A stretch of DNA of 1,053 bases from Escherichia coli (lineage in GTDB: Bacteria > Pseudomonadota > Gammaproteobacteria > Enterobacterales > Enterobacteriaceae). Where the stretch lies: assembly GCF_003334385.1 (NCBI RefSeq), contig NZ_QOWN01000131.1. The stretch is one strand, 5' to 3'. Of this stretch, positions 116-1,053 are shown piece after piece. Position 1 is the stretch's first letter; each line of letters begins with the position of its first letter. The notes under the pieces are model-generated. The model made no database searches. It saw only the letters and a list, made by a program, of their open reading frames with translations, and was not told the DNA's origin. Both the position numbers and the translations under genes were made by a program.

Positions 116-313
116 ATGCTGAAACAGCAGGATATGACCGAAACCGCCAGAGTGGTGTTTAATGAATTAAGTGCCACCGAACCGGCGACAGTCGGGGAGA
201 TTGCGCAGAATACTTACCTTTCACGTGAACGCTGCCAGTTAATACTGACCCAGCTTGTTATGGCGGGGCTGGCAGACTATCAGTTCGGTTGTTACAGACG
301 CCTTCAGTCCTGA
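116..313 (+). CDS. Small hypothetical protein, 65 aa, putative winged-helix DNA-binding protein
   Basis: ATG 116 with SD-like AAGGGA 7 nt upstream; stop TGA 311-313. Translation: MLKQQDMTETARVVFNELSATEPATVGEIAQNTYLSRERCQLILTQLVMAGLADYQFGCYRRLQS. The pattern (T-x-x-EIA ... hydrophobic helix LILTQLVMAGL ... aromatic/basic tail) resembles small wHTH regulators such as MarR-like or PapI/FaeA-like proteins; this is pattern-based inference, not a database hit. Frame 2 is open from the window start, so the ORF track's GTG 29 or a start outside the window cannot be excluded; ATG 134 is another in-frame alternative. Confidence 0.55.
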   Translation: MLKQQDMTETARVVFNELSATEPATVGEIAQNTYLSRERCQLILTQLVMAGLADYQFGCYRRLQS

Positions 314-327
314 AGGCTTTTTTATTT
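300..327 (+). terminator. Rho-independent (intrinsic) transcription terminator
   Basis: Perfect 7-bp stem GCCTTCA (300-306) pairing with TGAAGGC (311-317), 4-nt loop GTCC (307-310), followed by the T-tract TTTTTTATTT (318-327). The stop codon TGA (311-313) of the upstream ORF lies inside the stem. On the minus strand the hairpin is not followed by a U-tract, so it is unidirectional. Confidence 0.7.
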
Positions 328-463: not shown

Positions 464-1053
464 ATGCTTAGTACTGTAAAAATATCCAGTTGTGAGTTAA
501 TCAACGCCGACTGCCTGGAATTTATCCGGTCGTTACCCGAAAATTCTGTTGACCTGATAGTCACGGACCCGCCGTACTTTAAAGTGAAGCCTGAGGGCTG
601 GGATAACCAGTGGAAGGGCGACGATGATTACCTGAAGTGGCTGGACCAGTGTCTTGCGCAGTTCTGGCGGGTGCTGAAACCTGCCGGAAGTCTTTACCTG
701 TTCTGTGGCCATCGCCTGGCGTCTGACATTGAAATCATGATGCGTGAACGCTTCAATGTGCTGAACCATATTATCTGGGCGAAGCCGTCCGGACGCTGGA
801 ACGGGTGCAACAAGGAAAGCCTGAGGGCATATTTCCCCGCCACAGAGCGCATTCTGTTCGCGGAACATTATCAGGGGCCGTATCGCCCGAAAGATGCCGG
901 GTATGAGGCGAAGGGCAGGGCACTGAAACAGCATGTGATGGCCCCGCTGATTTCTTACTTTCGTGATGCGCGTGCTGCCCTGGGGATAACGGCAAAACAG
1001 ATTGCTGATGCCACAGGAAAGAAAAACATGGTGTCGCACTGGTTCAGTGCCAG
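464..1053 (+). CDS. DNA methyltransferase, beta-class amino-MTase (N6-adenine or N4-cytosine; DPPY favours N6-adenine), 5' partial - C-terminus beyond window end
   Basis: Frame 2 is open from ATG 464 to the window end (196 codons, no stop). The only canonical in-frame start after the TAA/TGA stops at 455-460 is ATG 464. Translation begins MLSTVKISSCELINADCLEFIRSLPENSVDLIVTDPPYF... Motifs: DLIVTDPPYF (residues 31-40, catalytic motif IV), RVLKPAGSLYLF (residues 69-80) and HIIWAKP (residues 102-108), in the order typical of the N6_N4 MTase family with motif IV N-terminal. The AdoMet-binding motif I (FxGxG type) is expected downstream, outside the window. SD is weak (ACAGG 448-452, 11 nt upstream). 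Confidence 0.9.
   Translation, partial: MLSTVKISSCELINADCLEFIRSLPENSVDLIVTDPPYFKVKPEGWDNQWKGDDDYLKWLDQCLAQFWRVLKPAGSLYLFCGHRLASDIEIMMRERFNVLNHIIWAKPSGRWNGCNKESLRAYFPATERILFAEHYQGPYRPKDAGYEAKGRALKQHVMAPLISYFRDARAALGITAKQIADATGKKNMVSHWFSA
472..491. promoter_or_regulatory. LexA (SOS) box-like palindrome inside the 5' end of the methyltransferase ORF
   Basis: TACTGTAAAAATATCCAGTT: CTG (474-476) - 10 nt AT-rich spacer - CAG (487-489), with 5' TA flank. Matches the E. coli LexA consensus TACTGTATATATATACAGTA at 16 of 20 positions, with all six core CTG/CAG bases intact. Lies at +9 to +28 relative to the A of ATG 464, which is atypical for a LexA operator. Confidence 0.4.

Follow-up and report, generated by a model that had tools for sequence, protein, structure and literature searches.

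This study addressed the question of whether a sequence resembling an SOS box, lying within the first codons of a DNA methyltransferase gene, is an operator for the host repressor LexA, and how a repressor might act from such a position. The DNA analyzed, here called the window, is a stretch of 1,053 nucleotides from Escherichia coli (contig NZ_QOWN01000131.1) that carries the 5' part of the methyltransferase gene, and a first-pass annotation of the sequence had proposed a LexA site in the first codons of that gene, working either by roadblock-type repression or with a start or promoter arranged in an unusual way. The proposal of a LexA site is backed by the score of the site and by the comparative evidence obtained here. 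Judged from the sequence data, it is very probable that host LexA binds positions 472-491 of the window and that the site has been selected for that binding.

The predicted operator and its score

The predicted LexA operator, TACTGTAAAAATATCCAGTT, occupies positions 472-491, or +8 to +27 with respect to the ATG, and makes up codons 3-9 of the methyltransferase open reading frame (ORF), which read AGT ACT GTA AAA ATA TCC AGT. Its two core triplets are CTG at 474-476 and CAG at 487-489. The assignment is based on the sequence itself, the heterology index (HI), the chance expectation, and the conservation of the site. The 16-bp core CTGTAAAAATATCCAG, at 474-489, is the sole match to CTG-N10-CAG in the window, where shuffled sequences give a mean of 0.28 matches; the first-pass annotation had estimated a chance core at about 0.25 per kb, in good agreement with this value. 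It had also described a complete CTG-N10-CAG and a match to the E. coli consensus at 16 of 20 positions, and the sequence confirms both, the mismatches to the consensus TACTGTATATATATACAGTA falling at box positions 8, 10, 15, and 20.

For the quantitative evaluation of the site, the Lewis HI matrix was rebuilt by regression from 140 pairs of E. coli K-12 sites and HI values (Table S1 of PMC12527982). The rebuilt matrix is palindromic and fits these data exactly, with a maximum error of 5e-5. It also matches the published HI values, namely, umuDC 2.77, recA 4.31, sulA 4.65, recN 5.16, and uvrB 6.11. With this matrix, the HI of TACTGTAAAAATATCCAGTT is 5.50, which is better than those of uvrB, lexA, and uvrA/ssb and sits between recN box 1 (5.16) and uvrB (6.11). 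The value is well within the limit of about 15 below which the first-pass annotation had considered binding to be supported, and the site is stronger than that annotation supposed when it compared the box with the weaker chromosomal SOS boxes. Only 6 distinct K-12 sites in Table S1 score better, and TACTGTAAAAATATCCAGTT falls far inside the LexA-binding class, for which the upper HI edge in the table is about 13.6 (PMC12527982). By exact convolution, a site with HI <= 5.5 is expected by chance 7.5e-6 times per window and 0.04 times per 5 Mb. Across 19 kb of the prophage, TACTGTAAAAATATCCAGTT is the only site with HI < 13.

In its composition, the site is similar to E. coli SOS boxes such as recN box 1 (TACTGTATATAAAACCAGTT) and the uvrB box (AACTGTTTTTTTATCCAGTA), with which it has in common the core, an AT-rich spacer, and the half-site variants TACTGT on the left and ATCCAGT and CCAGTT on the right. 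A CCAG right half had been attributed to the uvrB box in the first-pass annotation, and AACTGTTTTTTTATCCAGTA, which is listed in Table S1 of PMC12527982 with an HI of 6.11, does carry it. The difference from these systems concerns the placement: boxes of the recN/uvrB type overlap or abut promoters, whereas 472-491 lies within a coding sequence, hundreds of bp from the promoter of the operon, and its bases double as codons.

Conservation and coding constraint

The conservation of the site was evaluated in homologues from named phages and in further close relatives and loci obtained by IMG/VR scans. The core is located exactly at +8 from the ATG in homologues of phages of E. coli, Shigella, Klebsiella, Hafnia, Morganella, and Yersinia. 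It was present in every representative fetched from the following groups: phiP27, Stx2c phages, mEp460, cdtI, SfV, Klebsiella phages, the coliphages Eeyore and LLS, Hafnia yong2, Morganella IME1369_02, phiKO2, and PY54. Among the named box-bearing phages, protein identity goes down to about 60% and the HI of the box is 5.6-10.7; with the IMG/VR loci included, the range for box-bearing homologues is 5.6-11.2. In each 4-kb homologous locus, the +8 box is the only site with HI < 14. The box is nearly unchanged in 80 close IMG/VR relatives, in which the flanking codons 2-3 and 10-13 vary, and 101 further IMG/VR loci carry a +8 box with at least 12 spacer variants. The encoded residues also vary (K/N/I/H/C/E at codon 6, I/L/M/K/V/F at codon 7, and S/N/D at codon 8), while CTG and CAG are constant.

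A constraint unrelated to LexA might also act on this region, be it on the N-terminal peptide, on the structure of the mRNA or the initiation of its translation, or through a site bound by a phage protein; the likeness to an SOS box would in that case be a coincidence. Indeed, the peptide (N/S)TV..(N/S)S shows fair conservation, and the region is rich in A, as sequences around start codons often are. The box halves can also pair as a short hairpin, and a small winged-helix-like ORF is always adjacent. The contribution of coding constraint was examined in 11 divergent box-bearing genes, in which synonymous codon differences amount to 50-65%. In these genes, the third base is invariant in only 4 of 335 codon columns, two of which belong to the core, namely, codon 4, ending in the T of CTG, and codon 8, ending in the C of CAG; for two prespecified wobble columns to be invariant, the probability is about 1e-4. 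Similarly, only 2 of the 129 degenerate codons with an invariant amino acid are also invariant as codons, and one of the two is Thr4 ACT. In the larger set of 160 distinct genes, Thr4 is encoded by ACT in all 160, compared with 18% of the Thr codons elsewhere in the same genes, the third base of codon 8 is always C, and the core is intact in 159. In the natural variant L180 (701-730), the peptide TVNLNS is kept with the codons ACA, AAT, and AGC, and the box is lost by synonymous changes only. Therefore, the peptide does not require the box.

The pattern of variation also bears on RNA structure. The arms are always CTG and CAG, with no compensatory alternatives, and box positions 1-2 and 19-20 vary without staying complementary, which favors protein-DNA recognition over an RNA hairpin. 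An RNA hairpin was rejected as the cause of the palindrome, as there is no covariation, the flanks are non-complementary, and the stem is only 4-5 bp long; in the window, the hairpin has only 4 bp with a 10-nt loop. In N15-type phages, the small ORF and the leader preceding the gene are retained, but the box is absent. In addition, an HI of 5.50 is hardly expected by chance (p of about 1e-5), and related genes carry consensus LexA boxes such as TACTGTATAAAAATACAGTT (HI 3.3) at another position. A constraint other than LexA is accordingly rated as very improbable. Taken together, these sequence comparisons strongly support a real operator that is selectively maintained beyond coding needs.

The boxes of related genes were found in sister clade B, which consists of 13 loci (L235-L242, L244-L247, and L252) with the N-termini MHKHTL.., MQTTTL.., and MHEHIL.. 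and with Vibrio phages as the nearest named relatives. These loci have no internal box; instead, a canonical LexA box with an HI of 3.3-9.1 is located 166-188 bp upstream of the ATG, TACTGTATAAAAATACAGTT and AGCTGTATATATATACAGTC (HI 4.4) being examples. An extended -10 of the TGATAAAGT type comes after the clade B box, and in L244 the box overlaps the promoter-like TATACA-17-TAAAAT. A consensus promoter scan of positions 420-720 of L237 gave no sigma-70-like promoter. The promoter box of clade B independently ties the methyltransferase family to LexA. Clade B was also observed to have its own conserved leader 3' of the box, which differs from that of the +8 type; in the leader of L237, a terminator-like hairpin (627-654) precedes a strong Shine-Dalgarno sequence by about 40 nt.

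Another arrangement was found in L162, in which the +8 box is lost and AGCTGTATAAATAGCCAGTA (HI 7.3) is present at 151-170. The stop codon of the ORF before it, presumably Q, immediately precedes this box, and a late-promoter-like TTGCAT-17-TATTAT lies 5 nt downstream of it. L162 is a single case, which possibly represents a compensatory relocation of LexA control and would perhaps be a third independent LexA wiring of the family. As judged from the predicted boxes, the methyltransferase family is wired to LexA at least twice, in different ways.

The gene, its transcription, and the possible mode of action

The 5' 590 nt of the methyltransferase ORF lie in the window (464-1053, + strand), from which the ORF runs off; by translation and alignment, it comprises 353 codons in full. 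The annotated start at 464 is right, because the ATG is conserved, an in-frame stop codon (TAA, 455-457) is present 9 nt upstream, and the N-terminus is conserved. An alternative start codon was rejected on the same evidence, which leaves unsupported the suggestion of the first-pass annotation that the start might differ from the annotated one.

The protein shows the motif order of the beta class, with DPPY at residues 35-38, a central target-recognition domain, and a C-terminal FFMGSGS (FxGxG) at 309-315. Beta-class methyltransferases, of the adenine and the N4-cytosine type, give its best matches in the PDB and in NCBIfam, and the protein also matches PHROG DNA methyltransferase families. 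It is 95.2% identical to the methyltransferase of phage 1720a-02, which has been called very similar to M.EcoGII (PMC5778455); the link to M.EcoGII, an enzyme of 349 aa compared with 352 aa here, runs via this phage enzyme. M.EcoGI and M.EcoGII of the O104:H4 prophages resemble the present protein in size, in the order of DPPY and then FxGxG, and in prophage location. The gene is therefore predicted to encode a prophage non-specific N6-adenine methyltransferase of the M.EcoGI/M.EcoGII family. A PDB sequence search turned up no structure of M.EcoGII. Previous work found no expression of M.EcoGI or M.EcoGII in the lysogen and a deleterious effect of M.EcoGII when it is made constitutively; the report gives no mechanism for the silence and mentions LexA or SOS 0 times (PMC5778455).

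As a side observation at the start of the gene, one-base length changes in two A5 runs frameshift the methyltransferase and leave the box intact. One IMG/VR relative has A6 in place of A5 in the spacer, and L215 (ATGAAAATACTG) is one A short. Errors of sequencing, decay, or the on/off switching of a toxic gene by slippage could account for these variants.

Several E. coli chromosomes carry a lambdoid prophage that matches the window at 100% identity. Of 5,426 complete E. coli genomes, 2,206 contain similar DNA, which is also found in many Stx2 phages. The order of elements is Q, a pR'-like promoter, a terminator, a 65-aa ORF, a second terminator, a leader of about 138 nt, and the methyltransferase gene, which is followed by tRNA genes, then stx in the Shiga toxin (Stx) phages, and then the lysis genes. 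The methyltransferase gene thus opens the Q-dependent late operon, in which it is preceded by the late promoter and two terminators. The pR'-like late promoter is located about 570 bp upstream of the box, with the two intrinsic terminators between them; the promoter and the first terminator are just outside the window, at 8890-8997 of locus L001. The second terminator after the late promoter was identified by a terminator scan at 300-327 (+ strand), with a stem at 300-317 followed by a T-run, and it overlaps the stop codon of the small ORF. In phiKO2 and N15, an annotated terminator is found at the same distance of 139 nt before the ATG. Since it belongs to a Q-dependent late operon behind terminators, the gene is already inducible by DNA damage in an indirect way, and LexA would serve as an additional lock.

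A consensus scan found no sigma-70-like promoter upstream of the box in the window or in L001 8850-9560. With no promoter close to the box, classical occlusion is therefore not expected. Overlap with a promoter, by which SOS boxes are usually recognized, is seen in clade B and is lacking for the +8 box. What the +8 box does show is the arrangement required for a roadblock, that is, a strong predicted operator inside a transcription unit, downstream of a pR'-like promoter and of terminators. On this analysis, we hold with slightly better than even confidence that LexA acts at 472-491 as a roadblock to transcription elongation.

In the proposed mechanism, the constitutive pR' promoter would give few polymerases leaking past the terminators in the lysogen, and LexA bound at +8 to +27 would stop these leaked polymerases before the toxic methyltransferase is transcribed. 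A polymerase stalled there would have no trailing ribosome to push it through, because the site is just past the start codon. After DNA damage, LexA would be cleaved and the block would disappear, and dense Q-modified transcription would pass the roadblock regardless. The sequence evidence suggests that the methyltransferase is probably locked off until DNA damage. In previous work on LacI roadblocks, about 96% of polymerases were stopped at weak promoter flux and about 73% at strong flux; a stalled polymerase is removed by Mfd and, in vitro, by Rho, and the block is relieved by trailing polymerases and ribosomes (PMC4132739).

Several points weigh against a selected operator acting as a roadblock. 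No documented case of LexA as an elongation roadblock was found in the literature searched. A terminator is also present 3' of the gene in SfV, phiKO2, and N15; as terminators already flank the gene, it is uncertain how much a roadblock would add. Moreover, when undamaged cells are infected lytically, late expression could be hindered by such a block at the head of the operon. No LexA site was found near the gene in the N15-type relatives or in the Vibrio/Aeromonas phages VHML, phiO18P, phiARM81ld, and Val-yong3. Finally, an extended -10-like element, TGtAAAAAT, is present within the box of most representatives.

This last element, identified by our own scan at 475-483 (+ strand), raises the alternative of a classical operator, in which LexA would occlude either the -10 within the box, with a transcription start near +27, or a promoter in the leader, and would thereby govern transcription, independent of Q, of the methyltransferase or of the downstream tRNA/stx/lysis genes. 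TGn plus NANNNT is found at the same place in 11 of 12 representatives, TTAATG or TTACTG lies 17-18 nt upstream in window-type and Stx2c-type sequences, and most known LexA boxes overlap promoters, clade B being arranged in this way. On the coding strand, TGtAAAAAT is the only position-conserved promoter-like element. However, it has no conserved -35, as Hafnia, Morganella, phiKO2, and PY54 have not kept the -35-like hexamer, and the element is itself gone in the variants with CAT, TGT, or GAA at codon 6, in which the LexA core stays. A start near +27 would be downstream of the ATG, with no nearby in-frame start before DPPY, and therefore could not make the enzyme. The consensus scan described above also speaks against a local promoter, and the conserved blocks of the leader are shared with box-less N15-type phages, so that they look like RNA structure rather than a promoter. 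The TGtAAAAAT within the box is probably incidental, and a classical operator at this site is considered unlikely.

A promoter on the minus strand, giving an antisense RNA, was also considered and rejected, since no -10 lies at a proper spacing from the -35-like TTGAYW (the reverse complement of 499-504). The sole position-conserved match on the minus strand is the reverse complement of a leader block that is near-identical in box-less N15-type phages.

It could also be supposed that LexA binds without regulatory consequence and that its occupancy of the gene is tolerated, much as at the non-regulatory sites revealed by chromatin immunoprecipitation. Such a view would fit a site that lies within a gene, at a distance from the late promoter, and a gene that is already under Q antitermination and terminators. 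A neutral site, however, would not hold two saturated wobble positions across genera, and boxes would not reappear elsewhere in clade B and L162. Binding without consequence is thus regarded as improbable.

Returning to the roadblock, a broader view would combine three LexA wirings of the family (+8 intragenic, promoter at about -167, and beside the late promoter), with intragenic LexA serving as a damage-sensitive second lock in the form of an elongation roadblock. This combined view is put forward tentatively, with confidence falling somewhat short of even.

Concerning the other features upstream of the gene, the leader (326-463, + strand) was recognized as untranslated and structured from its invariant blocks and its fold, and its Shine-Dalgarno sequence is weak or absent. 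The leader, of about 138 nt, is conserved, and the same stretch is found at 1363-1500 in both L093 and L098. Positions 326-500 of the window, which span the leader, fold at -68.4 kcal/mol (z = -4.6). The blocks ATGGGCG, GGCCCA, GCGCA, and AGC.TA.C and covarying hairpins are shared by box-bearing and box-less N15-type phages. An Rfam search of the window (E <= 1) gave no match. The leader may be a translational or antitermination control element. A GATC (Dam) site was also observed at 459-462, 2 nt upstream of the ATG; the E. coli, Klebsiella, and Morganella types share this site, and Hafnia, phiKO2, and PY54 lack it.

The 65-aa ORF (116-313, + strand) is annotated in L001 and L002, matches phrog_331 (E = 1.8e-37), and shows a weak winged-helix similarity (Pfam TrmB and MarR, E of about 1e-3 to 1e-2). 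In lambdoid phages, this ORF travels with the methyltransferase. In phiKO2 and N15, a small ORF (gp51, annotated as winged-helix in phiKO2) was matched to it by position only, and in the distant relatives from Aeromonas and Vibrio phages, the position before the methyltransferase is occupied by a Com-like or zinc-ribbon ORF.

Relation to known systems and significance

Several temperate-phage genes are known to be controlled by LexA, namely, 186 tum, the N15 antirepressor (Mardanov and Ravin 2007, as cited in PMC10612081), and the dinI-like genes of phiKO2 (PMC7556043) and Gifsy, and they likewise have a host LexA box on a phage gene. These targets are early, anti-immunity, or accessory genes with promoter boxes, whereas in the present case the box is intragenic and belongs to a DNA-modification gene of the late operon. 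The proposed mode of action is comparable with the elongation roadblocks formed by LacI, CcpA, CodY, and the Kpn2I C protein, in which the repressor is bound downstream of the promoter; for the C protein, an account in PMC6237814 describes a roadblock that sets the expression of restriction-modification genes. In contrast to these known repressor roadblocks, LexA would here act on terminator readthrough from an antitermination-controlled promoter.

A further comparison can be made with mom of phage Mu, a late, potentially lethal DNA-modification function that is kept under several independent locks; the Com-like or zinc-ribbon ORF before the distant Aeromonas and Vibrio relatives is a further point of resemblance. 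The locks of mom are Dam/OxyR, the C activator, and the translational activator Com, while those proposed here are the terminators together with Q, the structured leader and its weak ribosome-binding site, and LexA.

In extraintestinal pathogenic E. coli (ExPEC), deletion of lexA strongly raises prophage endolysin expression (PMC9621596). The SOS boxes proposed in that report were compared with the present site and set aside, as they are non-canonical and distinct from 472-491. The methyltransferase gene is usually located just upstream of the lysis cassette, and its strong box might contribute to the endolysin effect in ExPEC.

No description of the site at 472-491 was found in the papers retrieved on LexA in connection with methyltransferases, Stx or late genes, telomere phages, and ChIP-seq in O157, or on EcoGII and its induction. 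Whereas both the repressor and its motif are well known, the same does not hold for the placement within a gene, for the target, a non-specific hypermethylase at the head of a late operon, or for the probable mode of action. If true, the finding would represent a natural repressor site written into codons and acting away from promoters. Intragenic operators of this kind escape SOS-box searches confined to upstream regions, and the synonymous-site signature used here offers a route to further ones. The synonymous changes of L180 provide a ready-made design for a box-dead gene.

The methyltransferase family is very common, including in Shiga-toxin phages, in which the gene lies between Q and stx, and its best-known member, M.EcoGII, is a widely used reagent. 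A selected intragenic LexA operator, if true, would explain the silence of M.EcoGI and M.EcoGII in the lysogen, which is otherwise without a described mechanism. A widespread prophage gene would thereby join the SOS regulon, and the SOS status of the cell, beyond Q antitermination, would set when temperate phages of Enterobacterales hypermethylate DNA.

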